From Obrimoposthia wandeli (taxonomy: Eukaryota), in NCBI GenBank assembly GCA_977020255.1, contig CDROCS010002078.1, positions 124,001 to 188,000 of the forward strand: DNA of 64,000 nucleotides, in the 5' to 3' direction. Each line of letters opens with the position of its first letter. The first letter of the stretch is position 1. This document shows positions 17,843 to 39,877 of the stretch, piece by piece. The notes beneath the pieces were generated by a model. It was not told where the DNA came from. It saw nothing but the letters and a program-made list of their open reading frames with translations, and did no database searches. The position numbers and the translations under genes were made by a program.

Positions 17843-17870
17843 TAGCTCGTCGGACACAGCGAATTCACGT

Positions 17871-22300: not shown

Positions 22301-25299
22301 ATCTAAGCATTGGACAGTTAGCAGCGTCATTAGAGCAGTATAGTGCAGAGAGGAATGAAGATATCAGAGGTGATATGAATTCGGAAACTCCAAGTAGTAA
22401 AGATATACTTACGGGAATTCTCAGGCAAGTGAAGCCGAAGTTGTTCAAAATGTATAGAGATGAAACAACCGATATAACAGACAATTTGACTAAAGCAGTC
22501 AGATCACAGATGTCTGCAGTAAAGAGAATGACCGCGAATCATGTATACCATGCATCAATAGATAGATTTTATGACGGTGAAGTTTTAGCGAGATTATGTG
22601 GAAACCAGACTACAAATAAAAAGTTAATTACAGCGATCACATATCTATGTTTCCAATTGACGGAACGAACGAGCCAACCTCACGAAGTCAAACAAGGAAT
22701 AAATGAAGCAATGTATTTGATAGAGAATGTATTACAGAGACGAATTGACGAAAATGGAGGTTGGGCAAAATTAAGTGACTATGCTAAAACCATTGTGGAA
22801 ATGAATGAAGACGATGACGAACAATGTCATGAGAATCGTCAAAAGGAAAATAAACAATACCGTCCGAAAGAGAGAAACAATCAACCAAATATGTCCACAA
22901 CAATGATGATGATGATGTTAGTAATGTTCATGGGAATGCAACAGGCATCAGGATTGATAGCATATGACTGTAGCATACCAAAGATGGGACAAAAGTATTC
23001 ACTGCTCGACAGCGAAGACTGCCCAGAGTCACAACCGTCAAAATTAGAAGTTAAAGGTGTTGAAAACTACTTTGTGTATCAGGATGTTGATAAAGTACAA
23101 GTAGAAGTGAAAGAATGTTCAATCCATTCAAGTTATCACGAATTCTATTGTGGCCATAGAAGTTTTATGTCGGAAATCACACCTACCACACCGTACAAGG
23201 CACATAAGGTTTTGCCGAGAGATTGCGAAGACGCATTTCGAACGGGAACAATAGAGGTAGACAAGAATTACAAACCTGAAGTAAAAATTGGAGTGAGACG
23301 ATACGAAACAGTCACGAGAGTCGGACAACGATGGGCCGATGGATCCTGTGACGGAGAAACAAAAAACGTGCGTGGAACCAAAGTATCTGAGTTAGTAATG
23401 GACGTAACTTACAAAATCGAATTAAAAACATGGACCGCCAATTTTGATAAAAAGACACAACTAATGATGAAGTATCCAGAATGTAAAATGACAGATACAT
23501 CTTGTTTTACAGGCGAATCCACAATTGTGTATCAAATAAATCCGAAGCAATGCTCTTTAGTATTTTTGAAAGAGATTAGTTTTAATAAAATAAAAGGGTT
23601 CCTGTATAATAAAGATGGAGAAGGGTTCCTGTATAATAAAGTTGGAAAAGGATTGCTAAATGAAACAAGACCAATTCCAATGACAAAGACACCTACACTG
23701 TTAATGGCAACATCAATAGAAGAAGGATTGATATTTATTAAAAAGAGAAACAAAGCGCGATGCGGAATGACTGTTAGTACCACAAACTATCCAGGAATAG
23801 TTTTGTCTAAAGAAGCAATAGCATTGGCAGAAACCAAGCTAAAACCAAAAGATATGCAGCTACACACGTATTTTAATAATAAAATTGATTTCTATTATCA
23901 TAAAGGATTGATGCAAATGGAACAGTTATATCGGATGATGATCGAAAGAGATTGCCAGCTAAACAAAGAGATCGTAAGAACAAAGTTAGCATTAGCTATT
24001 ACGAATCCAGACATGGTAGCACCATTATTACCCTTGGATGAAGGAGTATTTGCTAAAACCATGGGAGAAGTATTGTATACTTACAAGTGTAATAAAGTAG
24101 AGGTACAGTTGAGAAAAACAGATCGATGTACGAGTGAATTGGCAGTAACGTATAATTTAAAAGATCTTTTTGTTGAACCAATCACGAGAATGTTACTTCC
24201 AAAAGACACTCCAACTAAAGAAATCAGCTGCTCTAATATAATGGCACCTGAATATCAGATGACGAATAATCTATGGATAACGTTACCTGATCGGAAGCCA
24301 ACGACAACCCCAGCGATGATAAGAATGACGAATCTTAAAGGTAAAATGAAATTCCAAGCGGTGGAAAATATGGAGAACGCAGGATTGTACAATGAAAAAG
24401 ATTTAAAAGCGGCGTGGAACGAAATAATGTTTCCAGTAAGAAGAGCCAGAGTACTTACGGAGAGTGTACATCGAGCATTACCACCAGGAGCGAGATATGC
24501 GAATTTCGATATGTTATTATCGCCAAGTCATTTCAAGGAAGCAGCACATCAGACACTTAGAAAGATGTGGGGGAAATTCCTTGTTTTAGGACAATTATTT
24601 TCGGGTATCATAGGTATTTATGTTATAATTAAATTTGTGCAGGTAATTATAGCCCAGGTGTTGTCTACGTATAGTTTATACAGGATAACCGGAATCACCT
24701 GGCAACTTATAATTGGATGTTTTCCATTTTTAGCAAAATATCTAATGCACCATCATCACGAGAACGAGTTGCGAGCCCTCAAGAAGGAACAACACCAAAC
24801 AAGAACCATGATGCGAGAACCAAGAAACTATCGAGACGATAACGACGACGATAATGATAGTCCAGAAGTATATGCAAAGATACCAGGAAAACCAAAGATT
24901 CCGTTACCAGACAAGGAAGAAGTGGCGTTAAACCTATATCCAATGAAGGAACTAAAGGAGGAGAAGGAAAAGTTCAAGAGAGGCATCTTAATGATAAGAT
25001 GGCCTAAAGTGAGCTACAGTGAAATTCCACAAGCAGAGGAAAAAGACAAAAAAGATAATTCCAGAAGAATTCTAAAGTCTAGGATATCAAATGAGAATCC
25101 ATATGCTCCACCACAAGTAGCAGTAACATTGAACGAAAGAGAATATCTTGCCGAAGTTGATACCGGATCTGCAGTATCAGTACTGAGTAAAGAAATCTTG
25201 TCATCAAAAGAATTAAGAGAAGTATGTCCTAGAAAACAGACATTTGTTAACGTGAATGGTACAGATGTAGTGTCGGAAGGAACACTAAAATGTTCATAG
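19351..25299 (+). CDS. gag: Polyprotein segment 1 (1,982 aa): Gag CA/NC - Ubl - AT-hook - Bcl-2-like - chuvirus-like glycoprotein - N-terminal half of aspartic protease 1
   Basis: Gag capsid motifs (ITKFKGD...GWNDKEK...LTGLA...W..LENAF; RKQ..DEGVNEY...LAARAYP). CCHC knuckle CYTCKQMGHYSRDC at 20569-20610. DTG at 25159-25167. Ends at a TAG in mid-protease; the frame is also open without ATG from 18946. Confidence 0.95.
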   Translation: MAHPGAQADINAGNNVGEMNAEQLARALNATLRPNFSGSLQITKFKGDEESICDFLAEYSSCADVQGWNDKEKCVRVQAHLTGLALEVYKHLTEAERLDWPTLENAFIGKLVLGDLAKVNKRLMRERKQKHDEGVNEYAYVLRTLAARAYPRRIMRNQDGNPVAPEAQAAENDRNQNEMAEVLLDIFRGGLKKDIKVLLAVSDTNDFDNAVRKAREIEKNIKNNAALAIYAMTAGDDDKTKVFVNKTEPSNFQNRNYGQNKFEKVDESSNGNRDNFRSRNRDDSRGRNNSESWNRNRDDSRGRNNNDSWNRNRDDSRNRFNRDNSGNRQPWRGDDRNYNANRGERSDSRFGNNTGNSDGRFNNRGSGFELNFRRNDFRGRYDNRQNSRRVQFEDEQNKIDIRGRIMCYTCKQMGHYSRDCTRSKEFGTNRFGNNNFGNNNFGNNYRGYNSPPPWNRGGGYTPQPWRLNNQYTDRQQSPGRYNNYADRQQGAERYNNYVGQQGAERYNNSGRYNNNNNVDKTNSRESSPKPKGNFSYVSDDSDRNRETELRREIDFEDSDSKFERMLGIIKDSPHTKMANSSTLSKQEKSLHSREEMNDLMNRILEAYETPIEKTCNAQPMTDHVEAARNATSMENVKKIISEAKETLNQPLDETSEAPEVLAKLQTIKVHRLEEVRAELVKHSHDNLGYKEVPRGLLKGYGRYVQRSNQKGTMKISLRLISGQIIHEKLNVYQTMKTIRKKLAEKLEIDGMNMLFHYKGRSLDDEDVPVEFGYPIGNELEEKIDVITVGRQELVDNEGLTEILNSALEMIKTPIEILDSSSESGDNDVAEAWNKTSTPEPYVAELQDVELENELTTPVVEVPPEPEIIQTRQDEVTDTANQVRQSETVTQLVGEDEVSEIVDLDSPIWHAAYKDRQAEQMMRQNEEIGHEEGPSQEIQYNDETYDPGENQAEYQYFRRGPGRPRKGKSILRNVLTAPQTDEERHLSIGQLAASLEQYSAERNEDIRGDMNSETPSSKDILTGILRQVKPKLFKMYRDETTDITDNLTKAVRSQMSAVKRMTANHVYHASIDRFYDGEVLARLCGNQTTNKKLITAITYLCFQLTERTSQPHEVKQGINEAMYLIENVLQRRIDENGGWAKLSDYAKTIVEMNEDDDEQCHENRQKENKQYRPKERNNQPNMSTTMMMMMLVMFMGMQQASGLIAYDCSIPKMGQKYSLLDSEDCPESQPSKLEVKGVENYFVYQDVDKVQVEVKECSIHSSYHEFYCGHRSFMSEITPTTPYKAHKVLPRDCEDAFRTGTIEVDKNYKPEVKIGVRRYETVTRVGQRWADGSCDGETKNVRGTKVSELVMDVTYKIELKTWTANFDKKTQLMMKYPECKMTDTSCFTGESTIVYQINPKQCSLVFLKEISFNKIKGFLYNKDGEGFLYNKVGKGLLNETRPIPMTKTPTLLMATSIEEGLIFIKKRNKARCGMTVSTTNYPGIVLSKEAIALAETKLKPKDMQLHTYFNNKIDFYYHKGLMQMEQLYRMMIERDCQLNKEIVRTKLALAITNPDMVAPLLPLDEGVFAKTMGEVLYTYKCNKVEVQLRKTDRCTSELAVTYNLKDLFVEPITRMLLPKDTPTKEISCSNIMAPEYQMTNNLWITLPDRKPTTTPAMIRMTNLKGKMKFQAVENMENAGLYNEKDLKAAWNEIMFPVRRARVLTESVHRALPPGARYANFDMLLSPSHFKEAAHQTLRKMWGKFLVLGQLFSGIIGIYVIIKFVQVIIAQVLSTYSLYRITGITWQLIIGCFPFLAKYLMHHHHENELRALKKEQHQTRTMMREPRNYRDDNDDDNDSPEVYAKIPGKPKIPLPDKEEVALNLYPMKELKEEKEKFKRGILMIRWPKVSYSEIPQAEEKDKKDNSRRILKSRISNENPYAPPQVAVTLNEREYLAEVDTGSAVSVLSKEILSSKELREVCPRKQTFVNVNGTDVVSEGTLKCS
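21487..21717 (+). other. Ubiquitin/SUMO-like domain within segment 1
   Basis: MKISLRLISGQIIHEKLNVYQTMKTIRKKLAEKLEIDGMNMLFHYKGRSLDDEDVPVEFGY...IDVITVG (77 aa). Follows the beta-grasp pattern and the SUMO-like F.Y.G..L.D...P.E.G...IDV pattern; no terminal GG. Confidence 0.75.
22290..22790 (+). other. Putative Bcl-2-like helical domain
   Basis: YLIENVLQRRIDENGGWAKL resembles the BH2 helix (cf. YL...L..WIQENGGW..F). Upstream is a weak BH1-like segment, and a hydrophobic stretch follows. Confidence 0.5.
22891..24744 (+). other. env: Env-like glycoprotein of chuvirus G / class III type with internal signal peptide and TM
   Basis: Signal peptide MSTTMMMMMLVMFMGMQQASG, then LIAYDC...SLL...C...FYCGHRS...G...DGSCDG...YFNNKIDF...DCQL...LA..NP...GEVLYTYKC..VEV..R....C..EL.V...F.EP.TR.L...ISC, then WGKF..LG....G.IG plus hydrophobic TM. 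This follows the recalled chuvirus glycoprotein cysteine and motif pattern. Confidence 0.85.
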
Positions 25300-27732
25300 A
25301 ATATCGATGGAAGAGCATTGCAGTTAAATGCTAGAATATTCACAGATTGCGGAAGTCCAGTCATGATTGGGATGGACGTAATAAGAATGTTTGAAGGAAT
25401 AATTATACTACCAAACAACAAGAGTTGTAAGAATGACAGTTCAGTGAGAGAGATAAAAATGTTGAGAGGACCTATAGTCGAAAAGGAAAAATGCACTACG
25501 TTCCGTATGGGAGGTTCGTACCCAGACAGAAAACAGGAAGCGCTAGCAAAGTCGATACTTCACTACAAAAATGTAAATTTCGGACCACAAGATACGACGA
25601 GGAGAAAAATAACATATGTGAATCTGTCAGAAAGGGATCCCATGAGATTCGAGAGAAAGAGACGAAATATATTAGAACAGTACTATTCAAAAGGAATGGC
25701 ACGTAAAATGGCAAGATCAGGTTTAGAAATGCTAAACGCGACAAGTAGTTATGGTCATGAGATAGTAGTACGATGCGTATGGTGTAGAGTAAAGTTTAGA
25801 GAATGGGAAAAGAATGAAAACCCAATGAGACGTCATAAAAGAGATGCACCAAATTGTCCTTTTCTTTTGAAACTAAAAACGTCAAACGTACCAGAAATCC
25901 AAACGGGAAAAGCACCCGATTTCGATTACAGTGACGGGATTCCGAAAGGAGAATCAGCTCTAATAGCAGGAAGAGTAATAACGAATAGTCGAATTGAAGA
26001 TATATTCGAAGTTATGCGAGAAGTGATCGAATGTGACGAACAGTATCGAGAAATAACTTTCGAAGACCCAAGACTTAAAAAATTGGCAAAAAAGGGACTT
26101 TTTGCTATAAAAAAGGATGGTAAAGACGTAATTAAATGCCACAAGTGTAAAAAAGAACGAATTATCGACAGATATACTCTTGAGCTACCTAAGAAAATTT
26201 TACATCATGAATTTTGCGAATTTTGTACTTTTAAAAATAAAATAAAGCAAAAAGAACAGAAAACCGAATGTATAATCGAATATCAGATCACACGGAAAGA
26301 GATTTTGGCTCAACAAGACACACCGGTAGTGTCATTCGTGAGAAGATTATATCCAAAAGAAGCAGAAAGAATCAGAGAATTGGTAGAATTAAAAATAAAA
26401 ACTACGCGAAACGGATACGGATCGATTTTTGAATTACTGCGAGATAAAGATGACAGTACAATTGAAACAAAAGAGAAAGAGTACATAAATGAACTAGAAT
26501 ACGTACTAGAAGATCCGGAATGCGCAGTTTGCATGGTCAACAAAATAGAAGTTGCCTTTCTACCATGCGGACATGTAAGAACATGTCGGAGATGTGCAAA
26601 TGAAATGGTATCATGTCCAATTTGTCGAAGAATAATAGATCGACAAGTGAGAAACATTAGATTTCACTATCCAAACATAGGAAGTGGACTGACAGAGTGT
26701 AATAATTCGATAAATACAATATACCATATGGGAAACATAAATGGAGCACAGCGACCAGCAGCTATCATTAGAGTAAATAATTTAAGTGTAAAAGCCTTAA
26801 TTGATACAGGTGCTGTAGCTTCGATAGTAAGTGAAGACTGTTTGACAGAGGAACAGAAACGAACAATGGCAGAACCAGATGAATTCTTGGTATCGGTCAA
26901 TGGAGACCTTGTAAAAGTGACGGGAATATTACCATGTACATTTATAATAGGACGTAATACGATCACTATACCAGTTAGAATCATGAAAGAATGTCCTGAA
27001 CCTACAATTTTAGGAATGGATGTACTATCACAACTTAAAGGGATAAGTATTGATTTACAAGATCCAAGATTGAAGGATAGCACATCAAATAGACAAATAA
27101 ACCAAATTAATGTAATTATAGAGAATCCTATAAAAATCGGTAAAAGATCGCAATTTCTTATTCAAGGTCACACATTATCAGAAGATAAAGGACCAGTTGT
27201 GTTCGAACCATCACGAGATTTCATAGAGAAATACGAATTACCAGTTGTGAGTACAGTATGCCTGATCGAAAACCACAAAATACCAGTTAGACTGATGAAT
27301 ACAACCAACAATGACATTCTATTATACAGAGGAATGAGGTTGGGAAAGATAGCACAGATGGAGAATCCCACCGTGTGTGCTATGAAACTCGATAAAGATA
27401 CGAATGATTACGAAGAAATAGTAATCCAATCAGAAAGACTGACAACTAGAGAAAAGAAACAATTACTTGATCTAATACATAAATTTCCGAAAGTAATTGC
27501 AAAAAACCCATATGACATAGGAGAAACACCTGTCATAAAACATACAATACCACTGACAGAAGACAAAGTAGTCAGAAGAAGACCATATCGAGTACCATTA
27601 CAGTTACAAGATGAAGTAAAAAGTCAGATCGAAGATATGTCTAAAACAGGAGTAATTAGACCGAGTTTTTCGCCATTCTCAGCACCTGTGGTGTTGGTAA
27701 AAAAGAAGGATGGGAAAATGATGGGAAAATGA
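25300..27732 (+). CDS. Polyprotein segment 2: rest of protease 1 - BIR - BIR-like - RING (IAP) - protease 2 - N-terminal part of RT
   Basis: Same frame as segment 1 after the TAG (track ORF 25318-27732). BIR CVWC-x16-H-x6-C (25774-25857); second BIR-like LAKKGLF...KDVIKCHKC; IAP-type RING CAVC...PCGH..C..C...CPIC (26521-26628); DTG at 26803; ILGMD. Confidence 0.93.
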   Translation, partial: NIDGRALQLNARIFTDCGSPVMIGMDVIRMFEGIIILPNNKSCKNDSSVREIKMLRGPIVEKEKCTTFRMGGSYPDRKQEALAKSILHYKNVNFGPQDTTRRKITYVNLSERDPMRFERKRRNILEQYYSKGMARKMARSGLEMLNATSSYGHEIVVRCVWCRVKFREWEKNENPMRRHKRDAPNCPFLLKLKTSNVPEIQTGKAPDFDYSDGIPKGESALIAGRVITNSRIEDIFEVMREVIECDEQYREITFEDPRLKKLAKKGLFAIKKDGKDVIKCHKCKKERIIDRYTLELPKKILHHEFCEFCTFKNKIKQKEQKTECIIEYQITRKEILAQQDTPVVSFVRRLYPKEAERIRELVELKIKTTRNGYGSIFELLRDKDDSTIETKEKEYINELEYVLEDPECAVCMVNKIEVAFLPCGHVRTCRRCANEMVSCPICRRIIDRQVRNIRFHYPNIGSGLTECNNSINTIYHMGNINGAQRPAAIIRVNNLSVKALIDTGAVASIVSEDCLTEEQKRTMAEPDEFLVSVNGDLVKVTGILPCTFIIGRNTITIPVRIMKECPEPTILGMDVLSQLKGISIDLQDPRLKDSTSNRQINQINVIIENPIKIGKRSQFLIQGHTLSEDKGPVVFEPSRDFIEKYELPVVSTVCLIENHKIPVRLMNTTNNDILLYRGMRLGKIAQMENPTVCAMKLDKDTNDYEEIVIQSERLTTREKKQLLDLIHKFPKVIAKNPYDIGETPVIKHTIPLTEDKVVRRRPYRVPLQLQDEVKSQIEDMSKTGVIRPSFSPFSAPVVLVKKKDGKMMGK

Positions 27733-29984
27733 GATTCTGTATAGATTTCAGAGAACTGAACAAGATCACAAGAAAAGATGTGTATCCATTACCTAGAATC
27801 GAAGAGATGCTCGATAAATTGGGTAATTCAGATTATTTTACAACATTGGATTTGCAGAGTGGATACTGGCAAATCGAGATAGAGGAAGAGGATAAACACA
27901 AAACAGCCTTTTCCTGTGGAGATGGATTATACGAATGCGAAAAGATGCCATTTGGACTGACAGGAGCTCCAGCAACATTTCAGCGTTGCATGAATTTTGT
28001 ACTCGCATCGTGTGCAAACACGATGGTTTATATTGATGACATAATAATATTTTCGAAAACGTTCGAAGAACATTTAAAAAATCTTGAAGTTGTATTTAAA
28101 AGACTGGAAAACGCTAAATTAAAAGTTAAACCTACAAAATGCGAATGGGCTAAAGAGCGAGTAACATTTTTAGGACATATAGTATCGAAAGAAGGCATTC
28201 GACCTGATCCAGCGAAGATCGAGAAAGTAAAAGCGCATTTAGCGCCAAAGACTGTTAAAGAGATACAGAGTTTTTTAGGTCTTGCGAATTATTATAGACG
28301 ATTTGTTGAACATTTTTCAGATATAGCAACACCATTGAGAAAGTTGACGAGGAAAGATGAGAAGTTCATATGGGGAGAAGAAGCCCAACAAGCGTTCGAG
28401 CATTTAAAAGAAAGACTGATAAAAGCACCAATATTAGCGTTTCCAGATATAAACCGACAATTCATACTCATGACAGATGCAAGTAACTATGCTGTAGGAG
28501 CAGTATTGGGACAAGAGGATGACGAAGGAAGAGAACACGTCATTGCGTATGCGAGTAGAGGATTAAACAGAGCCGAAAGAGTATACTCTGTTATCGAAAA
28601 GGAATGTCTAGCCATAGTGTATTCATGTAGACAGTACAGACACTATTTGCTAGGACAAAAAGTATTCCTGTATACAGATCACAAACCACTACAATTCTTA
28701 TATAAACATAGAGATGAGATGAGTAGATTAAACAGATGGTTTCTAAAATTGGCCGAATTCGATCTAGAAATCCGTTATAGAACCGGAAAGTCGAACGGCA
28801 ACGCAGATTGTTTGTCGAGATTGACAAATGTAGACGAGAAAGGAAACATAATTCCAGAAGAAGATGAAACCAATGATCAAAAAGGAGAAGCAAATCTACT
28901 GACGATTTTGCTAAAAACGGGTAAAATAGACAAAGAGATCATCAAAGAACAGAAAGAAGATGAAGAACTGAGTCTAATCAAAGAATTGTTGGTGAAAGGA
29001 GACCTAAACGATGAAATGACGAAAAAATACTCGATAAAAGAAGGAATCTTGTATATTGTCAATAATGTCGGAAAGATAGTAGTAGTAATTCCGAAGTCAT
29101 TGAAAACAGCAGTGATGATCCAGTATCACGACGGAACACTAGGAGGACATCTGTCAGGGCGAAAGACGATAGCCAGAATCAAAGAGAAGTACCATTGGGA
29201 TGGTATGGAAGACGACATAAAACAATGGTGTAAACAATGTAAAGTATGTTTAACCAGAAAAGACACCGGAACTCGTACTAAAGTTCCGTTGAAACCAATG
29301 CCAGTTCCCTTGGCACCAATGGAATTCACAGCGATGGATATATTGGGACCATTGAGAGAATCAAGTAAAGGAAACAAGTATGTCATAGTATTTACGGATT
29401 ACATGACGAGATGGGTAGAAGCATATCCCATGCAGAACCAGAAAGCTGAAACAATAGCACAAATCTTAGTGGAAGAGATAATATTTCGATATGGAGTGCC
29501 TAGAAAATTGCTAACAGATCAAGGTAAGAACTTCACTGGAGAAGTCATAAAAGCAGTATCGAAGATATTCGGAATCATGAAGTTACAAACTTCACCATAT
29601 CACCCACAGACAGATGGTCTGGTAGAAAGGTTTAATAAAACTTTATGTATGATGGTACAATCCTATTGCTCCGACAAGCAAGAGGATTGGGATAAATATT
29701 TACCTTCATGTTTATATGCTTACAGGAATTCAGTTCGAGAGGCGATGGGTCACACACCATTCTATCTGATGTATCTCAGACAGAACAATATGCCGATGGA
29801 TCTGGAGTGGACCGAGCCAACATCTCAGTATCTAGAAACTGAACAATACATTGTCGTTATGAAGGAAAGGTTACAAGATGCTTGGACCAAAGCCGGATTG
29901 AAGTTGAAATTCAATCAAGAAGGTTACAAGGAACAATACGACAAAAAGCAAAACCACATGAATTTAGAGTCGGAGATCAAGTGA
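27729..29984 (+). CDS. pol: Polyprotein segment 3: RT - RNase H - integrase
   Basis: YIDD (28029-28040); RNase H TDASNYAVG...EKECLAI...TDHKPL; IN HHCC zinc finger, MDILGP, TDQG, HPQTDGLVERFN. Separated from segment 2 by an 11-bp duplication. Confidence 0.97.
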   Translation: MRFCIDFRELNKITRKDVYPLPRIEEMLDKLGNSDYFTTLDLQSGYWQIEIEEEDKHKTAFSCGDGLYECEKMPFGLTGAPATFQRCMNFVLASCANTMVYIDDIIIFSKTFEEHLKNLEVVFKRLENAKLKVKPTKCEWAKERVTFLGHIVSKEGIRPDPAKIEKVKAHLAPKTVKEIQSFLGLANYYRRFVEHFSDIATPLRKLTRKDEKFIWGEEAQQAFEHLKERLIKAPILAFPDINRQFILMTDASNYAVGAVLGQEDDEGREHVIAYASRGLNRAERVYSVIEKECLAIVYSCRQYRHYLLGQKVFLYTDHKPLQFLYKHRDEMSRLNRWFLKLAEFDLEIRYRTGKSNGNADCLSRLTNVDEKGNIIPEEDETNDQKGEANLLTILLKTGKIDKEIIKEQKEDEELSLIKELLVKGDLNDEMTKKYSIKEGILYIVNNVGKIVVVIPKSLKTAVMIQYHDGTLGGHLSGRKTIARIKEKYHWDGMEDDIKQWCKQCKVCLTRKDTGTRTKVPLKPMPVPLAPMEFTAMDILGPLRESSKGNKYVIVFTDYMTRWVEAYPMQNQKAETIAQILVEEIIFRYGVPRKLLTDQGKNFTGEVIKAVSKIFGIMKLQTSPYHPQTDGLVERFNKTLCMMVQSYCSDKQEDWDKYLPSCLYAYRNSVREAMGHTPFYLMYLRQNNMPMDLEWTEPTSQYLETEQYIVVMKERLQDAWTKAGLKLKFNQEGYKEQYDKKQNHMNLESEIK

Positions 29985-30706
29985 TGATATTTTATCCAGT
30001 CATCGAACCAGGTCTATCGTTTAAACTTCATAGACCATACAAAGGACCATACAAGGTGATCCAGACAACCTCAACAAATTTGAAAGTAATCAACGAAGAG
30101 AATCGGAACAAGGAACCGATGATTGTACATGCAAATCGATGCAAATTAGTACCAAATAAAGATAATGCGTCACGATATGAGTTAAGATCACAGAAATCGA
30201 AATCGAATACCAATACCATTAAACTTACACGAATGGTAAGTGATCGGAACTACATAAACATGATGACGAGTGGTAGCGAGAAAAAACCAGCGAGAATTGG
30301 TATGCTCAGAATGAAGTACCAAGAGGAAAAGGAAGTAATCCGACACATCGCACCACAAGAGATATTAGAAGAAGACGAAGAGATAATAGTTGTTTTCGAA
30401 AAAACACAACCAACAGATGTGGCTAAAGAAGTCATTGTGAAAGATGCACTGACAAACGAATTTCTGTGCGAACTTAGAGTGTCATACTACGACGGAAATA
30501 CATTAGTCGCAGCACTTTATCAAAATTCCAATGTGTTTACGACTGAGAAAGTGATAATCGAAATCACATTGACACCAAACATAGTTGCATGGCAGAACTA
30601 TGACAGTACTGAAGCAGGACTAGCCAGTCAGGAAGAGAAGGAACCGGCCGGTGGTCACATACTGCATGGTACACCAAAAGACTCAAACAAGAATACCACG
30701 ATGTAA
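29882..30706 (+). CDS. Polyprotein segment 4: integrase C-terminus (GPY) and beta-rich repeat 1
   Basis: KAKPHEFRVGDQVM...KLHRPYKGPYKV...VHANRCK. Joins segment 3 if one A is added to the run at 29943-29947. Confidence 0.9.
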   Translation: MDQSRIEVEIQSRRLQGTIRQKAKPHEFRVGDQVMIFYPVIEPGLSFKLHRPYKGPYKVIQTTSTNLKVINEENRNKEPMIVHANRCKLVPNKDNASRYELRSQKSKSNTNTIKLTRMVSDRNYINMMTSGSEKKPARIGMLRMKYQEEKEVIRHIAPQEILEEDEEIIVVFEKTQPTDVAKEVIVKDALTNEFLCELRVSYYDGNTLVAALYQNSNVFTTEKVIIEITLTPNIVAWQNYDSTEAGLASQEEKEPAGGHILHGTPKDSNKNTTM

Positions 30707-30708
30707 TA

Positions 30709-32031
30709 ATGGTATTACGTAATTCACATGGGAAAAGAGATATCATGAGAGTCCATTTAATCGACGCTGACACTGAAAAGATAATTTGTCAGATGGACAC
30801 TAAATACTTTGATGGAAAGACAATTGTATGTTGTATACCAGAATCTCACCGGTTAGACACAGATCAAACGGAAGTATCTGTAAGGTTGAGCGTAATAGAA
30901 GGATTCCATTCGCCAACCCATCCGGAAGTGACTAACAATAAAATCATCAAAGCAACGGCAGAATTACGCATTGACAGCGGATACCGGAAGTGGGAAGCTA
31001 AAAATAAAAAGCCACAAAGAATCAATATGATCCGAGAACAAGTGACCAACTCAATCCAGCCAAAATATCATGCTGAAATAGTATCATCCGCGCCAAGTGT
31101 GATCACATCGATAAACGACGAAATTATAATTTTACTAAAAAATCGATGGCCGTCATCAACTGAGATACGAGTAAACTTAATTAATTATGCGAAGACACCG
31201 ATATCTAAGCTGAATGTTACCTATTTTGATGGATTGTCCATCATGGGTAAATTGGAAACAATTGTCATGTGCTATGGAGCACAGTTCCAAGTTGAGATAC
31301 TTAAAGATAGTGTAATACCGTATCCGATTCACAAATACGAAGGGGAAATCAATCCAATTATTCTAACACCTTCATTAATTTCAGTTCAGACAGACATACC
31401 AGAATACCCTTCGAGCGAGTCTAGTGAAGACAGCGAACCGGAAAGTAACGATACAGAATCAACAGAATCCGAAGATAACATAATAGAGCGATTCGGAAGA
31501 ACCATGGAGGTTGAATTCGCTAAAGAGAGCAGAAAAAGACAAAATATAGAATTCGTGAAACAGAATATACAAGAAAGACGAATTAAATCTGCAGAAGAGA
31601 CCGAGTCGGAAGAAGACTCAACAAAGGAACAGACATCAGAGACAAAGATGAATATCTCTCCAGCAATACGAATGCTGAGAGGAAAGAAACTGGCGAAACT
31701 ATCCAACATCGACGAACAGATAGAGAAGAGATTAGAAAGACTAAAACTTGAAGAGTCAGAACTAACGCCACCAATGAGTGAGATCATTCCAGGTAAGTTA
31801 TACCTCGGAAATGTGGAGGATGCAACCGATGAAAAGAAACTGTTGAAACAAGGGATAACATATGTGATCAACGTTACAATGAATCACAAATCGCAATATC
31901 AGACGATCAGAGCTATGACATTAAGAGTAAAAGACTCAATGGACGCTAATCTTCTCGAATGGTTCGTAGAAACAAACGAAATACTTCACAGAGAACTCCG
32001 AAACCAAGGAAAAGTGTTGGTACATTGTTAG
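30709..32031 (+). CDS. Polyprotein segment 5: beta-rich repeats 2-3, acidic linker, N-terminal part of a dual-specificity phosphatase
   Basis: MSEIIPGKLYLGN...LLKQGITYVINVT...KVLVHC*. Joins segment 4 if one A is added at 30676-30679. Ends at a TAG inside the P-loop HC*KGISRS. Confidence 0.9.
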   Translation: MVLRNSHGKRDIMRVHLIDADTEKIICQMDTKYFDGKTIVCCIPESHRLDTDQTEVSVRLSVIEGFHSPTHPEVTNNKIIKATAELRIDSGYRKWEAKNKKPQRINMIREQVTNSIQPKYHAEIVSSAPSVITSINDEIIILLKNRWPSSTEIRVNLINYAKTPISKLNVTYFDGLSIMGKLETIVMCYGAQFQVEILKDSVIPYPIHKYEGEINPIILTPSLISVQTDIPEYPSSESSEDSEPESNDTESTESEDNIIERFGRTMEVEFAKESRKRQNIEFVKQNIQERRIKSAEETESEEDSTKEQTSETKMNISPAIRMLRGKKLAKLSNIDEQIEKRLERLKLEESELTPPMSEIIPGKLYLGNVEDATDEKKLLKQGITYVINVTMNHKSQYQTIRAMTLRVKDSMDANLLEWFVETNEILHRELRNQGKVLVHC

Positions 32032-33948
32032 AAAGGAATTTCTCGATCAGCAACTCTAGTATTAGCATATCTAATAAAGACTAGACGAATGCAGGTACTA
32101 GAAGCGCTAAAATACCTACAGGAGAGAAGAAGTATTGCAAACCCAAATCTTAATTTTTTGGGACAGTTGGCAAATTACCAACTTCTGTTGCAAGAACAAA
32201 GACGGATGGACGACATTCCTGAGGATCCAAAGGAAAAGAATTTCCTCCAAGCATTATCATTGACTGGGTTATTTTTAGCCGGAGTCGACAAAATTACACA
32301 GATAATGCCAAAAGTATTTTTATGTCATCCAGGAGATATAGATACTGCTGGATTAAAGTTCCACAGTATCAACCGAGTAATCAACATTGTTGAAGTCGGA
32401 AACGAGATAATTAGTCTGTGTCAAAATACTGAAGATGACACCACTCGATACATACATGCTTCCAATCGAGAAATAAACGATGCACAACAACATCTGACGA
32501 AATTGACTCAAACCATCCAAGCTGAAGTCACAGAAGGAAACGGCGTTCTGATATATCAGAAAAAAGGTACGATGTTAGCGCCTACCATAGGTGTATCCTT
32601 GTTGGTAGAGTACCATGGTCACACGCCAGAAGAAGCGATGGTCTACATCAAACAGAATAGACCGAATACGGAATTCAAACCGTTACTCGTTCGAGAAATA
32701 GAGAAATACACCGAAAAGAGGAAGCAACAACGAGAAACAAATGAAGCTACAACAACAGTGCCCAGCTTTCAATACCAAAGATTGTTAGCGATAGGCTTGT
32801 TAAGTTGTTTAATGCCGATAACGGGAGCACAAGAGATAGGCTCCAACCACGGAAATAGTTCCTGGTTCAACGAAATCCACAACTACACCATACAGTACCA
32901 TACGCCGGCACTGATGATGCTATTAGTATTGTTAGGACTAATTGATGTGTGGATCATCCGAAAATGTCTTCGATCTATGAGAACCGACAGTAAAAGATTT
33001 CAGTTTGTAAAGATGAAGAGACCAAATGGACCAACGAACAAAGTGCTTGTGTATCTAGACGAAAGGATCGAGGACAACATAGTAAATGAAGCGATATTTT
33101 ACCCACAAAACAGAATACTGAATCAATTTCGAATAGATTACGAAGCTGACCGACAGCGCACACTTGACCGAATATCAACAACATTCGCTGGATGCAAGCG
33201 AAGAAAACGAGTTGTAAAGGAAATACAAAAAGATGCTGATACAAAAGGACCAACGTATATATTCGATGGCGATGTCATCAAAACACGTGAGTATGGAAGT
33301 AAGAGAGTGATAATTGAAACGATGGAAGGACATAAAACATGTTTGTCCGCCAAAAATGGATTCGGAAAGTTGACGATACAAGGTAAACCAGTACAGTTGA
33401 TTATCGGAAGAAATGGAATCGAGGAGATGTCAAAACAACGACAGATAACAAAACGATCTAATCAGAAACAGATATCTCTCAAACGATTGATAATTAAAAC
33501 CCTTTGCAAAAGGTCGGTCAAGGCCCTGTGCACCGTTGCACAAGGATTGATCTATGGAGTAGTAATTGGATTGGTACTGCAAGCCATGCCAACCAGTAAA
33601 GCCGAATTGATGACACTATCCGAATATAATTTACATTTGAGAAATCTAGACAACACCCTAGAAATAATCAAGACATCCCACAGTAGAGCCGTGATGATCA
33701 TGTGTGTAAAAGGATGTCCAGGACGAATGTGTATAGTCCCAGCGACCGAAATGATAACACTTAATGGACATTATGGAGTTAGTGTTGTCACATGTGAAGA
33801 CTACATATTTGGACAAACTAAAATAGTGCTTCTCAGTGACATGTCCAACCAAAGTGCACACAAATTTAAAATATTAACCATCAAGAGTAAAGGAATACCA
33901 GCAGTACGTTATGGTATTCTAGAATTGGTTAAACATTACTGGCACTGA
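32032..33948 (+). CDS. Polyprotein segment 6: rest of the DSP, DSP-like pseudophosphatase, signal-peptide/TM membrane modules
   Basis: In frame after the TAG: KGISRSATLVLAYLI...EALKYLQERRSIANPNLNFLGQL. Second DSP fold (ITQIMPKVFL...INRVINI...GVLIYQKKG...EEAMVYIKQNRP) lacks the catalytic Cys/Arg. Hydrophobic segments at 32782-32829, 32908-32958 and ~33520-33603. Confidence 0.88.
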   Translation, partial: KGISRSATLVLAYLIKTRRMQVLEALKYLQERRSIANPNLNFLGQLANYQLLLQEQRRMDDIPEDPKEKNFLQALSLTGLFLAGVDKITQIMPKVFLCHPGDIDTAGLKFHSINRVINIVEVGNEIISLCQNTEDDTTRYIHASNREINDAQQHLTKLTQTIQAEVTEGNGVLIYQKKGTMLAPTIGVSLLVEYHGHTPEEAMVYIKQNRPNTEFKPLLVREIEKYTEKRKQQRETNEATTTVPSFQYQRLLAIGLLSCLMPITGAQEIGSNHGNSSWFNEIHNYTIQYHTPALMMLLVLLGLIDVWIIRKCLRSMRTDSKRFQFVKMKRPNGPTNKVLVYLDERIEDNIVNEAIFYPQNRILNQFRIDYEADRQRTLDRISTTFAGCKRRKRVVKEIQKDADTKGPTYIFDGDVIKTREYGSKRVIIETMEGHKTCLSAKNGFGKLTIQGKPVQLIIGRNGIEEMSKQRQITKRSNQKQISLKRLIIKTLCKRSVKALCTVAQGLIYGVVIGLVLQAMPTSKAELMTLSEYNLHLRNLDNTLEIIKTSHSRAVMIMCVKGCPGRMCIVPATEMITLNGHYGVSVVTCEDYIFGQTKIVLLSDMSNQSAHKFKILTIKSKGIPAVRYGILELVKHYWH

Positions 33949-35444
33949 TCATTGGATTTATAATATTAATACTACTCATCTTGTTTTGTTGTACAAAGAT
34001 AGAGTCGAGATCAAAAAAGAAACGTCATGATCTCGCAAGACGAACAGGTCAAATGAACTTACAAAAATTCAACACAATTATACCAAGACCACCATTTCTA
34101 GATGAACCAGCACCAGAGTACCAGCCAACGATATATGAACATATTGAGGAAAGACCGTACTATATGAGTAATTTGACTTGTTTCATTGAAGTTCCTGAGT
34201 TTAGGAATCGAACGATCATAGGAATCATGCTGATCATACAAATCACCACTACCAAGGCTAGTTATGAGATCATGATCAGTAAATGGAGACAAGACGTAAT
34301 ACGGGCAGTATACATAGAAATCCCCCTACTAAAAACAAATCACGTAGTAGACATTCATCTACAGACGTCAGCAACTGACAATATCGATCAGAAATTGTAT
34401 GTCATCCGACAGGTCAGAATAAAAATCGACCAAAATACACCCGTTTACAATTTAATATTATTGTATCATGAAAGAGTGTTATACCTAAGGATAACAATAT
34501 CAAAGAGGAAGCGGATTATCCAAAGTATCCGAACAAAGTCATTAATATTGCCTAGAGATGAGCGCATCTGGAAAATTGTCGACAGGATTATGATCACAGG
34601 CAGACGACGTAAAACCGTATGGAATTCCGTTAGAATATTTTTCAGATTGTTAGAAACTGACAGGGTGACAGTAATGTGTCCCAACCCAGATGGCGGAATC
34701 AGATTCGAAATCCAAAGCCAAATGTTAGTACCACATTTTAACACAGAATGTCTGTGTAATCGAATTGCCAGTAATACTACAGAGACCTCGACCATAATCA
34801 TGATAATAACAGGTGAAATATTCTACATAACTCTAAGATACCAGAACCGTCGATTTCGTAAATCCGGTATAAGTATCAAACCCAGGAAAATCATTCCCAA
34901 AAGACCAATCCTAGTCAAAAAGAAGGCAAAGGTAATCGAAAGTAAACGCCATTCCAAAAAACCGACAGTGATCAGAACAAAGACAGAAGCGAAAGAAAAA
35001 GAGCTAAATCCCAGAAACCAAAGTACAATTATTAAGAGGACAAGAGTGAGGGGAACGATCCCACTAGATCCCAAACATCATTTCCAATCCAAAATAATAA
35101 TACCTGTTCCATCAGAAACAAAACACCCAAATCCCCGAATTTTTAGAAAATCGGACATAATACATGGAAACCGATCAAAACCCATGGAAATGTCATTCGA
35201 ACCGACAAACAACAAAATGAAGTATGATTATAAATCATCAGACAGCGGAATAACAGCGGTCAATGCCCTAATTGGAATGGCCGTAGTGTCAACAGCAGTG
35301 GTTTTATTGACAATCATGTGCGTAAAAGGCAGTCAAGTATGCCCAGGAATACGACGAAAATGCGAAGGATTTCGATGCTGTGACACACCCACCATGGAGG
35401 AAGTGGAATTGCGACCCTTACCTCCGCCTCCCATCAAGATATGA
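33933..35444 (+). CDS. Polyprotein segment 7: TM, Tyr-motif tail, type I membrane protein with proline-rich C-terminus
   Basis: The frame is open from 33933 (TLLALIIGFIILILLILFCC). Joins segment 6 if one A is added at 33931-33933. TIYEHI at 34128-34145; signal-like 34215-34259; TM ~35259-35324; RPLPPPP at 35412-35432. Confidence 0.8.
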   Translation, partial: TLLALIIGFIILILLILFCCTKIESRSKKKRHDLARRTGQMNLQKFNTIIPRPPFLDEPAPEYQPTIYEHIEERPYYMSNLTCFIEVPEFRNRTIIGIMLIIQITTTKASYEIMISKWRQDVIRAVYIEIPLLKTNHVVDIHLQTSATDNIDQKLYVIRQVRIKIDQNTPVYNLILLYHERVLYLRITISKRKRIIQSIRTKSLILPRDERIWKIVDRIMITGRRRKTVWNSVRIFFRLLETDRVTVMCPNPDGGIRFEIQSQMLVPHFNTECLCNRIASNTTETSTIIMIITGEIFYITLRYQNRRFRKSGISIKPRKIIPKRPILVKKKAKVIESKRHSKKPTVIRTKTEAKEKELNPRNQSTIIKRTRVRGTIPLDPKHHFQSKIIIPVPSETKHPNPRIFRKSDIIHGNRSKPMEMSFEPTNNKMKYDYKSSDSGITAVNALIGMAVVSTAVVLLTIMCVKGSQVCPGIRRKCEGFRCCDTPTMEEVELRPLPPPPIKI

Positions 35445-35567
35445 TGAGTCAGAGGAGGTTGTAGATAAATTAGTGTGTGAAATATGTAGAAATATCTAGA
35501 AGCGATTGTACAAATAGTAGAAATATATAAAACTCATGTAGAAATTAATCATCATCATGTATTTAGA

Positions 35568-35867
35568 ATGGCTGAAGAATGCCCAATATGTTTGGAAGAT
35601 CTAACCGAACGAAGAACAAGACCCGAAACCTGCAACCATTTACACCACGAGGAATGTTTATCGACATGGATCAGAACTTATGGACAGTTCGGACATCCAA
35701 CATACCCTTGTTGCCCTGTATGCAGAAGACAATTCGCAAGATTCATCATGTTAGAAACCAACCAAGAGGATGTATATGTACAGGTGGTATTCTGTTGGAA
35801 GAATTTCGGAGAGTGTTGGTGTTATTACTGTTTGTCAGATCGACAAAATCAGACCACTTTTGTGTAA
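35568..35867 (+). CDS. Accessory RING-H2 protein 1 (99 aa)
   Basis: CPIC...CNHLHHEECLSTW...CPVCRRQF, plus C-terminal CWKNFGECWCYYC. Confidence 0.85.
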   Translation: MAEECPICLEDLTERRTRPETCNHLHHEECLSTWIRTYGQFGHPTYPCCPVCRRQFARFIMLETNQEDVYVQVVFCWKNFGECWCYYCLSDRQNQTTFV

Positions 35868-35927
35868 ACATCACACAACCACCAGTCCTCAATCGAGCCC
35901 AAATTCAACATCAACCCTCCCACAGTA

Positions 35928-36232
35928 ATGTCTGGAGAATGTTCCATCTGCTACGAGAGCATCGTGGACTTCTACACCAAGCCCAACAACTGCGACCACC
36001 TTTTCCACGTCGAATGCCTCGAGACGTGGATCCCCATCGCAAACAGCAACAATCCCCTCGACTTCCCAACCTGCCGATGTGCAGAGCGACCTTCTCAGTA
36101 CACTACGTGTACAACCAAGACAGCCTCCAAGCAGTGGTACCCATCGTACACTGCTGGAAAACCATCTGCGATTGCTGGTGCTCGTTCTGCGTGGAGGAGC
36201 GAAGCACAGGCCAGCCCAATCCCCAACAATAA
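35928..36232 (+). CDS. Accessory RING-H2 protein 2 (~101 aa after repairing a 1-nt loss)
   Basis: CSIC...CDHLFHVECLETW...TC|PMCRATF...CWKTICDCWCSFC. The two halves lie in track ORFs 35928 and 35579 and are joined by adding one C at 36074-36075. Confidence 0.82.
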
Positions 36233-36567
36233 TCGAAGGTAACTTTCTGACTTGAACGTGACATCATGAACTACCCTGTGTATCGCATACCGCGATAAAT
36301 TAGCTACCATAATTGTAATCATAATTATATAATCTTGTGAACTGTAAATTGACCATTACCATTTTTATGTATGATGTTTAACTGAAATTGTAATTATTAT
36401 ACTGAATTTCTAAAAAAGACAATTTTTTATGCTTAGTGTGAATGCGTAAACATGCCTAAAATCGAAACAAAACTCGGTAGGATTGGATAACTAAGGATTC
36501 GTTTTGAAATAAAAATTAAATTAACGATGAGAACGGTGAACCCCAAATTGAAAGGAGTTATTTTCTT

Positions 36568-37104
36568 ATGCAGATGAAGTGCTCTGTATGCATGGAGAAG
36601 ATTTGGGCGGTATCAGCATCCCCTGTCGGCTGCCGTCACAAATTCCACGAGGAGTGCCTCTATTTGTGGGCCAAGGCTCGACCCCCCGGCCATATCACAT
36701 GTCCACTGTGCCGGACACCCTTTGGCAAATGGACGCTCCAGAGCCGTGGAAGGCACAAGGGCACCCGATCGCCTGCCAGCTGCATTGGTGGCATACATTG
36801 CCAATGCTACGTGTGTCTCGCACGCCGGCGCGACACACAACTGGGCATCCGCGAGAGATGGCGGTCTAGTCGAGACTGCCACTCGTGGTTCCAGGCCATA
36901 CGTCTCTGGATAGAAAATCACGCGATGAACGGGCAGTATTTCGACCTGTTTGTCGAGAGCCCACACCTAACCCGGAGCCAACAACTACACCTGTACAACG
37001 GGGACAGTCCGTCCTTTCCCGACCTACCCCTGGAGCAGGTTCTGCGCTACCTGGCCAGTCGGAACCAGCCGACAATTACAATTGACCTAACTTATGACAA
37101 TTGA
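36568..37104 (+). CDS. Accessory RING-H2 protein 3 (176-178 aa), GC-rich
   Basis: CSVC...CRHKFHEECLYLW...CPLCRTPF, plus CIGGIHCQCYVC. The ATG at 36574 follows a TTTTCTTATGCAG acceptor-like site. Confidence 0.85.
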   Translation: MQMKCSVCMEKIWAVSASPVGCRHKFHEECLYLWAKARPPGHITCPLCRTPFGKWTLQSRGRHKGTRSPASCIGGIHCQCYVCLARRRDTQLGIRERWRSSRDCHSWFQAIRLWIENHAMNGQYFDLFVESPHLTRSQQLHLYNGDSPSFPDLPLEQVLRYLASRNQPTITIDLTYDN

Positions 37105-37367: not shown

Positions 37368-39877
37368 TGTTAGGTTTGAGAATTAAGAAATTTAAATATT
37401 TTAGTCGATTAAATACTAAAATAAAAATCCTTGAAAGCAAGGTTGAAAATTAAATTAAATATTAATTTTAGTTTTAGAATTGAAATTAGTGGAATTTAGG
37501 GTAAAAATTAGGAGGACCACGAAGGTCGTGTATAATGTGAAATGTATAAAAGTTAGATTAATTAACCCAAAAGTGCAACAAAAGACACATTAACTAAGCA
37601 AAGAAGAAAAAAGGGAACAATATCGAACGTCAATCAAAATCGAACGTCAATCAAGGTAAGCACATTTTCGTGCAGTTAAATTGGAGTGTTTAAAATTAAT
37701 TTTCAGCTGCCGCAAAAGACTCCAGTTGAAACCGCTGTCGACATTGCTGACTGACAGACAGGAGTTGCAGAATCGACTATAAAAGTCGTCGACAAGAAAA
37801 CGAAATACACAACCGGAAAAAGCAATATCCCAATCTACTGAGAAATAGACCACAAAAAACCAAGGAAAACCAACATTGTCCCTAGCAGCAACCAGGTGGT
37901 TTTGTGATAGACTTGGAGATTTAATTATTGATTTAGCAAACTAACTGATTGGGAAATTCTCACGTTTCGTCACACAAGACTTAAAGATCAATCTATCACG
38001 GATTTGGGCAAAGTCGTAACAGCGACATACAAATCGATTCTATTCAACCGAACTCGAACTTAATTTTAGTTTTAGAATTGAAATTAGTGGAATTTAGGGT
38101 AAAAATTAGGAGGACCACGAAGGTCGTGTATAATGTGAAATGTATAAAAGTTAGATTAATTAACCCAAAAGTGCAACAAAAGACACATTAACTAAGCAAA
38201 GAAGAAAAAAGGGAACAATATCGAACGTCAATCAAAATCGAACGTCAATCAAGGTAAGCACATTTTCGTGCAGTTAAATTGGAGTGTTTAAAATTAATTT
38301 TCAGCTGCCGCAAAAGACTCCAGTTGAAACCGCTGTCGACATTGCTGACTGACAGACAGGAGTTGCAGAATCGACTATAAAAGTCGTCGACAAGAAAACG
38401 AAATACACAACCGGAAAAAGCAATATCCCAATCTACTGAGAAATAGACCACAAAAAACCAAGGAAAACCAACATTGTCCCTAGCAGCAACCAGGTGGTTT
38501 TGTGATAGACTTGGAGATTTAATTATTGATTTAGCAAACTAACTGATTGGGAAATTCTCACGTTTCGTCACACAAGACTTAAAGATCAATCTATCACGGA
38601 TTTGGGCAAAGTCGTAACAGCGACATACAAATCGATTCTATTCAACCGAACTCGATCTATCACGGAGCAGAGCTTGTGAACCAGTTCAATTGTTGTTCCA
38701 GTCAGCACTATATCAGCGAATTTTCATTCGGCAATTCAAATTCAGTCAGCCGATCGGTTTTTGTGTTCGATCTCAGTATATTCCGGAACGCTTCAGGATA
38801 TCTCAACCTCGAGACAAAAAACGTAAGAGAGATTACTAAAATTTGTCTCAATTGTCCTAAAGTTGTCATAAAGTTTGACACTAAAATTGTCTCAATTGTC
38901 CTAAAGTTGTCATAAAGTTTGACACTAAAATTGTCTAAATTGTCCTAAAGTTGTCATAAAGTTTGACACTAAAATTGTCTAAATTGTCCTAAAGTTGTCA
39001 TAAAGTTTGACACTAAAATTGTCTAAATTGTCCTAAAGTTGTCATAAAGTTTGACACTAAAATTGTCTAAATTGTCCTAAAGTTGTCATAAAGTTTGACA
39101 CTAAAATTGTCTAAATTGTCCTAAAGTTGTCATAAAGTTTGACACTAAAATTGTCTAAATTGTCCTAAAGTTGTCATAAAGTTTGAAGAGAAGTTTTGTC
39201 TAAATTGCCATAAAAGTTTGAAGAGAAGTTTTTGTCTAAATTGCCATAAAAGTTTGAAGAGAAGTTTTGTCTAAATTGCCATAAAAGTTTGAAGAGAAGT
39301 TTTGTCTAAAATTGCCATAAAAGTTTGAAGAGAAGTTTTTGTCTAAATTGCCATAAAAGTTTGAAGAGAAGTTTTGTCTAAATTGCCATAGTTTTGGTAT
39401 AAAGATAAAAGTTTGCCATTAAAGTTAAATTGGGAATTAAAGTTAGAGTTTGACATAAAAGTCACATTAATTTGAAAATCTATAACTTGAGCTTATTCGC
39501 GAGTTAGAGGAACGACTCTAAAAACTCGATCACCCTTAACATAAAATCGATACGTGGTTCATCCCCACTTGTTGTAGAGACTTACAGAAGTCTTAGGAAT
39601 TTTTACTATACTTTTTAGAAAATACGTACATAAACGTATTGTTGTGTTTTAGTTTCGTGAATTACAAATAAACAATTTCCTACATTAGAACAAGTTGTTT
39701 TTGCACCCTTCAGAATAAGAGACATCAAATCAAATACCTTCAGATAGTACAAGAGATAGGCAACCATAACACTAAGTAGGCCACGACCAACTTTAAGACC
39801 TGCTTCTAATCGAACTCACGTTGGGGCCCTCCGCACTCAAGAGGATCTATACAAAGTTTCGTATAGAAACCCCAACA
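37368..39877 (+). repeat. 3' LTR (2,510 bp) with an internal 598-bp tandem duplication
   Basis: 37462-38059 is repeated at 38060-38657. Five fewer 35/36-bp units than the 5' LTR; 2089+598-177=2510. Confidence 0.97.
39667..39672 (+). terminator. Candidate polyadenylation signal in the 3' LTR
   Basis: AATAAA ~205 bp before the LTR end (17606-17611 in the 5' LTR), followed by a GT/T-rich stretch (GTTGTTTTT). Confidence 0.4.

Follow-up and report, generated by a model that had tools for sequence, protein, structure and literature searches.

A tandem of dual-specificity phosphatase domains within an LTR element

We analysed a window of 64,000 nucleotides from Obrimoposthia wandeli (assembly GCA_977020255.1, contig CDROCS010002078.1, positions 124,001 to 188,000, forward strand), in which a Ty3/gypsy element of 24,150 bp (24.2 kb) bounded by long terminal repeats (LTRs) spans positions 15728-39877. 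Between the LTRs, on the plus strand, lies a pair of dual-specificity phosphatase (DSP) domains (31771-32712), here called DSP1 and DSP2. A sequence-only reading of this DNA had placed the pair downstream of the integrase, and a domain search puts it there as well, beyond the integrase core (29088-29648) and inside the LTRs. The translation of 31771-32712 likewise shows the two features noted in that reading, namely a tandem in one frame and a TAG directly behind the catalytic cysteine of DSP1. Two points had been missed: the stop is one of six lesions, and the element belongs among Burro-like GAG-ENV-POL elements. All observations on the element derive from one genomic copy, which is itself broken. 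The pair and its surroundings are laid out as follows:

30353..31398, plus strand: three diverged beta-rich repeats of about 90-110 amino acids (aa) each, IPT/TIG-like as a lead only
31399..31770, plus strand: acidic/charged linker, with no rhodanese or kinase-interaction motif (KIM) domain
31771..32196, plus strand: DSP1, atypical DSP domain, with TAG at 32029-32031 (lesion 5)
32290..32712, plus strand: DSP2, pseudophosphatase with a DSP fold, loop IYQKKGTMLA at 32551-32580
32713..33948, plus strand: rest of the DSP frame, no known family, membrane segments at about 32902 and about 33523
33933..35444, plus strand: next open frame, membrane segments at both ends, no Pfam family

DSP1 carries the general-acid Asp (31933-31935), the Cys-X5-Arg loop and the N-loop Asn (N-loop at 32140-32148) that make up the DSP signature. 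The loop reads HC*KGISRS, with His at 32023, Cys at 32026-32028 and Arg at 32044-32046, so that Asp, Cys and Arg are all present while the loop is interrupted in this copy by the TAG at 32029-32031. With X at the stop, DSP1 matches Pfam DSPc (PF00782) with 120.4 bits (E 6e-35, cut-off 33.5). In a comparison with solved structures, which covered 59 sequences at E 1e-10 or better, the closest are DUSP10 (89.9 bits), DUSP4 (82.2), DUSP1 (81.5) and DUSP16 (81.4), with STYX (80.4) and DUSP22 (76.6) within 14 bits of DUSP10. The nearest database proteins are host DUSPs from many phyla with about 40% identity, which indicates that the capture of DSP1 is old.

Phosphatases that act on MAPKs (mitogen-activated protein kinases), the MKPs, are defined by a rhodanese/KIM domain, and Tyr435 of DUSP10 has an allosteric, MAPK-binding role (PMC13147768, accessible part). 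Neither a rhodanese domain (PF00581) nor a KIM is found in the 1111-aa frame bearing DSP1, and Leu occupies the position of Tyr435, with numbering counted from the catalytic Cys and from the Y435F entry 9o8w. Judged by its sequence, DSP1 is thus a DSP and not an MKP by definition. The loop had been read as a MAPK-phosphatase motif, which was not borne out, as DUSP10 shows Ala at Cys+2 and DSP1 a Lys. Membership in the MAPK phosphatases fares no better, given the missing rhodanese/KIM domain, the Leu and the lack of a subfamily placement in the tree.

DSP2 is a catalytically dead domain that, according to profile and model comparisons, keeps the DSP fold. It shares the frame of DSP1 and matches Pfam DSPc over profile positions 2-120 of 133 with 29.3 bits (E 8.7e-7), below the cut-off of 33.5. 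Asn replaces the general-acid Asp (32464), Gln the Cys (32557) and Leu the loop Arg (32575). Compared with 24 references, DSP2 has Asn where all 24 have Asp, Tyr where all have His, Met-Leu-Ala where all have Ser-Arg-Ser at each position, and Gln where 20 have Cys and the others Gly or Ser; the loop Gly and Thr and the N-loop Arg-Pro-Asn, each found in 24 of 24, are retained. In the ESM Atlas the first matches of DSP2 score 0.95 and the ten best are all DSPc, and it matches the mouse DUSP28-like structure 2hcm with E 0.002. Structure prediction, which the sequence-only reading had named as a check on the fold, gives a DSP fold: an AlphaFold2 model built with an alignment of 24 named DUSPs, and biased toward that alignment, has a predicted local distance difference test score (pLDDT) of 82.8, and Foldseek aligns it to DUSP5, MKP3 and MKP5 with template modelling (TM) scores of about 0.7-0.76. 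When AlphaFold2 was given the tandem as a single sequence, the stop again read as X, no usable fold resulted (pLDDT 35).

DSP2 is 20-25% identical to any DUSP, and its tree branch measures 5.75 changes per column. Behind the TAG no further stop interrupts the 227 codons up to the end of DSP2, which has a chance of about 1e-7 at the local composition, and the DSP frame has the codon bias of gag-pol, which the other two frames lack. Catalytic residues lost, structural residues kept, an open frame and a branch of this length together argue that the fold of DSP2 has been kept by selection.

The alignment score between DSP1 and DSP2 (57) exceeds those of 1000 of 1000 shuffles, and 23 of 209 reference domains also score 57 or more against DSP2. 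A free tree joins the two domains in 0% of bootstraps, while a tree that does join them withstands an approximately unbiased (AU) test (p 0.30), so that the data neither demonstrate nor refute an origin of DSP2 by duplication. The reference set behind these comparisons excludes 31 unnamed proteins of 200, and the tree holds 44 of the 209 domains. A HMMER search with DSP2 against 1.84 billion representatives returned two weak unnamed matches (E 5e-6 and 8e-4).

The sequence around the pair

Between integrase and DSP1 the three repeats at 30353-31398 have pairwise scores exceeding 1000 of 1000 shuffles and share a Y-[YF]-D-G motif. They have no Pfam match; their likeness to TIG domains (ESM Atlas 0.91, 157-159 shared features) serves as a lead only. 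The first Met of the DSP frame sits within repeat 2, and a separate gene for the pair is therefore less favoured than a polyprotein. The stretch from integrase to DSP2 is free of membrane segments, from which it follows that the pair would be cytosolic, perhaps with a tether in the hydrophobic stretch behind it. Behind DSP2, where a signal-peptide-like hydrophobic stretch was seen by eye at about 32780-32830, no Pfam match was found. The stretch 32713-35444 amounts to about 900 codons of membrane-associated cargo of no known family, including a lysine/arginine-rich part.

In the relatives P0198 and P0200 one frame runs from protease through reverse transcriptase (RT) and integrase to the integrase C-terminus and on into family-specific cargo with hydrophobic segments.

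The element and its lesions

The element is a young, defective copy of a Burro-like Ty3/gypsy element with in-frame gag-env-pol. It has the features of Ty3/gypsy elements (Metaviridae), i.e. TG...CA LTRs, a target duplication, a primer-binding site and the order protease-RT-RNase H-integrase, and a glycoprotein B (gB)/mononegavirus-type env placed between gag and pol, as in GAG-ENV-POL gB-type errantiviruses. The target-site duplication is the 4-bp AATT that flanks both LTRs on the outside. The 5' and 3' LTRs show 2 mismatches in 1912 aligned positions (99.9% identical), which makes the insertion young. The flanks of the element have 28-33% GC. In frame, the layout is gag, ubiquitin-like, Bcl2-like, gB-type env, protease, BIR-RING and pol, and from the first Met to 35444 there is room for about 5,360 codons:

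15728..17816, plus strand: 5' LTR, 2089 bp, TG...CA, with 44-bp and 35/36-bp tandem arrays
17825..17843, plus strand: putative tRNA primer-binding site, complement ending in CCA, 8 nt past the 5' LTR
19351..20613, plus strand: Gag, from the first Met to a single CCHC knuckle (20569-20613)
21499..21660, plus strand: weak ubiquitin-like domain, Pfam ubiquitin E 0.0048, below cut-off
22576..22764, plus strand: weak Bcl-2-like domain, Pfam E 0.095
22948..24846, plus strand: gB-type envelope/fusion glycoprotein that matches Pfam Monjiviricetes_fusion (PF24664) with E 8e-93, in frame with gag
25123..25470, plus strand: first aspartyl-protease domain, with an in-frame TAG at 25297-25299 (lesion 1)
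25696..26643, plus strand: IAP-like module, BIR at 25696-25866 (E 7e-10) and C3HC4 RING at 26512-26643 (E 3e-11)
26749..27042, plus strand: second aspartyl-protease domain, from the domain search
27708..29648, plus strand: RT (27708-28184), RNase H (28446-28760), integrase zinc finger and core (29088-29648)
29843..30200, plus strand: integrase C-terminal region, reached through the frameshift near 29.95 kb (lesion 3)
35490..37104, plus strand: three small RING-H2 open reading frames (ORFs), 35490-35867, 35868-36242 and 36520-37104
37368..39877, plus strand: 3' LTR, 2510 bp, with a 598-bp internal duplication

The Bcl-2-like domain aligns (E 5e-11) with the Bcl-2 stretch of the relative P0199, for which the Pfam E value is 0.0015, and the env protein ends in a C-terminal membrane segment at about 24583. 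An AT-hook-like motif, as we take GRPRK at 22222-22251 to be, lies between the ubiquitin-like and Bcl-2-like domains. The BIR-RING module has an aspartyl-protease domain on either side (25123-27042); the relative P0198 has three protease domains, one of them past the integrase. The RING-H2 ORFs, probably encoding E3 ligases, adjoin the 3' LTR in a more GC-rich stretch. Pfam gave no match to the dUTPase-like domain that Burro has in the protease-RT interval, though a stretch of fitting size is present there, and the Burro review used HHpred instead; neither MATH nor ankyrin domains were found in the element proteins.

The gap of 8 nt between LTR end and primer-binding site is unusually long. 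A likeness to elongator tRNA-Met is presumed for this site; no tRNA gene was found in the 64-kb window. The leader contains 20-, 49- and 109-bp tandem arrays within 17817-18920. The duplication in the 3' LTR (598 bp; 37462-38059 and 38060-38657) is perfect, with 596/596 identical, and does not occur in the 5' LTR, and the copy number of the tandem arrays is unequal between the two LTRs.

Two in-frame TAGs (25297-25299 and 32029-32031) and four frame changes make up the six lesions of this copy. Besides lesions 1 and 5, given above, these are:

near 27.7 kb, plus strand: lesion 2, frameshift at the start of RT, where P0198 and P0200 are continuous
near 29.95 kb, plus strand: lesion 3, frameshift, where P0198 and P0200 are continuous
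near 30.68 kb, plus strand: lesion 4 (putative), frame change between repeats 1 and 2
near 33.94 kb, plus strand: lesion 6 (putative), frame change at the start of the 33933-35444 frame

The continuity of P0198 and P0200 identifies lesions 2 and 3 as such. Half the LTR divergence leads one to expect about 8 substitutions in the 16 kb of coding sequence, 0.47 of them nonsense; the probability of two or more nonsense changes is then 0.08, and at the upper 95% limit 1.7 are expected. Two stops thus fit ordinary decay since insertion. There is a strong case that the TAG in DSP1 is an inactivating lesion and not a recoding site, and that this copy accordingly makes neither active DSP1 nor, from that frame, DSP2.

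Elsewhere in the window, the element is nested in a sequence of about 1 kb, probably a non-autonomous DNA transposon, with 230-bp terminal inverted repeats that are 99% complementary (14987-15216 and 39914-40143). Other features are a separate decayed gypsy-like element (67-3190, minus strand), a hAT transposase fragment (5272-6075, plus strand), a 108-bp tandem array (43612-44667) and a PDZ-domain exon of a probable host gene (54528-54797, plus strand; Pfam E 3e-13).

Possible functions of the pair

With a confidence that is evenly balanced, we favour a reading in which the pair would act as host-manipulating cargo that damps stress-kinase and death signalling, with DSP2 giving support in place of a KIM. 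Damping of these pathways is judged the likeliest role given the Bcl2-like, IAP-like and RING cargo of the same element. In working family members the pair would form, with moderate confidence, a cargo tail that continues from integrase in one long polyprotein. We are moderately confident as well that the first hydrophobic segment would leave the pair on its cytosolic side and that proteolysis would free it, possibly with a membrane tether remaining. With lower confidence, DSP1 would be an atypical, KIM-less DSP dephosphorylating a host stress or innate-signalling kinase, most likely of the JNK/p38 type; KIM-less dephosphorylation of MAPKs is described for 3 of 20 human atypical DUSPs (PMC13147768, in the part available). 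Together with the Bcl2-like, BIR-RING and RING-H2 cargo it may prevent the host cell from dying during replication of the element. DSP2 may serve as a docking, dimerising or allosteric module in place of the missing KIM domain, and not as a phosphate-binding trap. Of the earlier proposal of a captured signalling suppressor, the capture of DSPs amid cargo for host signalling agrees with the neighbouring domains, while membership in the MAPK phosphatases is not supported; we found no evidence for STAT as a target.

Several findings weigh against this reading. The activity of the family is predicted from the sequence of a single broken copy. DSP1 has Leu where DUSP10 has Tyr435, and it carries at Cys+2 a Lys that 7 of 200 reference loops share. 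The phylogenetic comparison with DUSPs envisaged earlier was run on 44 named reference domains, few of them true MKPs, and leaves DSP1 in an open fork. No related tandem was found: 75 longer proteins were compared, and of 275 proteins of near length the best 120, and all are host-type DUSPs, including DUSP13-like tandem gene models of fish and tetrapods. None of three related polyproteins contains DSPc, although P0199, which ends before RT, contributes little to this result. With no related protein carrying the tandem and none of the three carrying DSPc, it is from the repeats that we deduce one continuous frame linking integrase to DSP1. Finally, where about 8 substitutions are expected, four frame changes are many for a young insertion, so that the copy may stem from a template that was defective before it and may have the stop in common with other copies.

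A broader and more tentative extension, which we regard as possible though rather doubtful, is that a lineage of giant enveloped metaviruses captured a signalling phosphatase and evolved a catalytic-plus-scaffold tandem, by analogy convergent with the D1-D2 domains of receptor protein tyrosine phosphatases (PTPs). If so, this would be a retroelement with a toolkit in the style of large DNA viruses (Bcl2-like, IAP, RING E3) directed at the stress signalling and apoptosis of its host. It would also be the first retroelement known that uses an enzyme of its own to rewire phospho-signalling in the host.

The best-surviving alternative, to which we give roughly half the weight of the cargo reading, is that DSP1 is active in the life cycle of the element or on a non-MAPK substrate, such as Gag, integrase, particle proteins, or phosphate on lipid or RNA. 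Many large DNA viruses encode single DSPs; poxvirus VH1, which is packaged in the virion, and the baculovirus PTP are analogues of a DSP working in the virus's own life cycle. Probable co-translation with Pol would package DSP1, which has no KIM, lacks the Tyr of the MKPs and carries a basic residue at Cys+2. Its closest solved structures, however, are metazoan MKPs and atypical DUSPs, none of the 59 structure matches is labelled viral, the other cargo points to host death and ubiquitin pathways, and relatives lack the DSP.

It is improbable that the pair is a neutral passenger, a fragment of a host transcript gained by template switching and now decaying. The broken copy, the variable cargo of related elements and the high divergence of DSP2 would suit such an origin, but the frame is open with an element-like codon bias, the fold of DSP2 is kept at 20-25% identity to any DUSP with structural residues retained while catalytic ones are lost, and the identity of DSP1 to its nearest DUSPs (about 40%) speaks for an old capture.

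Slightly less probable still is the earlier suggestion that DSP2 binds phosphorylated MAPK or STAT as a substrate trap of the STYX type. DSP2 does have a DSP fold with its nucleophile replaced, 4 of its 12 best pairwise scores are with beetle STYX-like domains, by small margins, and STYX is known to compete for ERK1/2 (PMC8269279, accessible part). All STYX proteins keep the loop Ser-Arg, according to the same part of that source, whereas DSP2 has Met-Leu; missing from it are the loop Arg, both Ser, the His and the general-acid Asp, all kept in 24 of 24 references, and so it has no phosphate cradle of the kind a trap needs. We therefore regard a phospho-substrate trap as unlikely, because the phosphate-binding Arg is gone; DSP2 may bind a partner independently of phosphate.

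Very unlikely, in our judgement, is a role of the TAG in tuning phosphatase output through programmed or leaky read-through. The LTRs are 99.9% identical, and each of the two internal stops of the main frames is a TAG with AA behind it; the 8 other listed ORF ends are TGA or TAA, save one frame end per lesion. Both stops nevertheless lie inside folded domains, which makes read-through unlikely; the copy is broken by four frame changes as well, decay is consistent with two nonsense changes, and the relatives have no stop in the protease region. Just as improbable are errors of sequencing or assembly in a repeat behind the TAG and some of the frame changes. High-copy repeats are error-prone and the lesion count is high for the age of the LTRs, yet agreement at 1910 of 1912 LTR positions and 596 of 596 in the duplicated LTR block indicates high base accuracy.

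Comparison with known systems

The element most closely recalls Burro/GYPSM1, the giant gypsy-like elements known from planarians, for which the accessible part of a review (PMC6431247) describes Gag, ubiquitin-like, BCL2-like, mononegavirus-like env, protease, BIR and protease-RT-RNase H-integrase in one polyprotein of 4,873-5,140 aa, tandem repeats, a size of >30 kb, MATH and ankyrin domains and 2-3 CCHC knuckles; the apoptosis and ubiquitination domains are proposed there to interfere with those host systems. Our element shares the domain order, the tandem repeats and the cargo theme, with a strong BIR and weak ubiquitin-like and Bcl-2-like domains in the order described, and its span of about 5,360 codons is near the size of that polyprotein. 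It differs in its 24.2 kb, its one CCHC and the lack of MATH and ankyrin, and the DSP pair, the TIG-like repeats and the three RING-H2 ORFs after integrase are not named in PMC6431247. Being below 30 kb and without MATH or ankyrin, it is filed as Burro-like and not as Burro proper. Gene order and env type also agree with the GAG-ENV-POL HSV/gB-type errantiviruses that PMC13524379 (accessible part) describes from Platyhelminthes, Bryozoa and Nematoda; by eye and not by computation, our env follows the six Schmidtea mediterranea sequences of class C1a in its pattern of cysteines and motifs. Cargo is not described in that part. This likeness of env and the GC content of the flanks would suit the planarian host expected of Burro proper.

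With MKPs (DUSP10/MKP5, DUSP1, 4 and 16) and atypical DUSPs, DSP1 shares the DSPc fold, the Asp, Cys and Arg and an N-loop PNLNF as in DUSP10; it departs from MKPs in the missing rhodanese/KIM domain, the Leu at the Tyr435 site, the Lys at Cys+2 and its fusion to a retroelement. DSP2 resembles STYX, STYXL1 and STYXL2 in having the fold without the catalytic Cys, and differs from them in also lacking Arg, Ser and Asp and in being tethered behind a catalytic domain. Of the tandems with which the sequence-only reading had compared the pair, the D1-D2 arrangement of receptor PTPs, a catalytic followed by a dead domain (PMC8269279, part available), has the same order as here, as an analogy only. 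Receptor PTPs use classical PTP domains, unlike DSP1-DSP2. The comparison with CDC14 fails, for there the inactive domain comes first, the reverse of the order in the element, and DSP2 matches DSPc and not Pfam DSPn.

Capture of enzymes by LTR elements has parallels. Orchid LTR elements are reportedly listed as carrying AlkB. Rotifer LTR elements have GDSL esterase and DEDDy nuclease ORF3s, enzymes captured downstream of pol, and in the accessible part of that work (PMC5408684) no phosphatase is reported. The word phosphatase is absent from the Burro review PMC6431247 and from the errantivirus survey PMC13524379 with its 7 supplements, and likewise from the portions available of the Troyka, planarian genome and PIWI papers. 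A full-text literature search, whose scope did not extend to the original Burro description and figure labels, found no DSP cargo reported in such retroelements, in line with the earlier statement that no such pair was known from an LTR retrotransposon. On present evidence the DSP pair is a new type of cargo in a known kind of element, unless the original Burro description already shows a DSP. Its value is limited by the single broken copy. As a small, assayable enzyme the phosphatase would nonetheless make the interference proposed for Burro-like elements, untested so far according to the accessible part of PMC6431247, directly testable. Compared with the systems above, the pair would extend retroelement cargo to phospho-signalling and offer a natural active-plus-dead DSP pair of independent origin.

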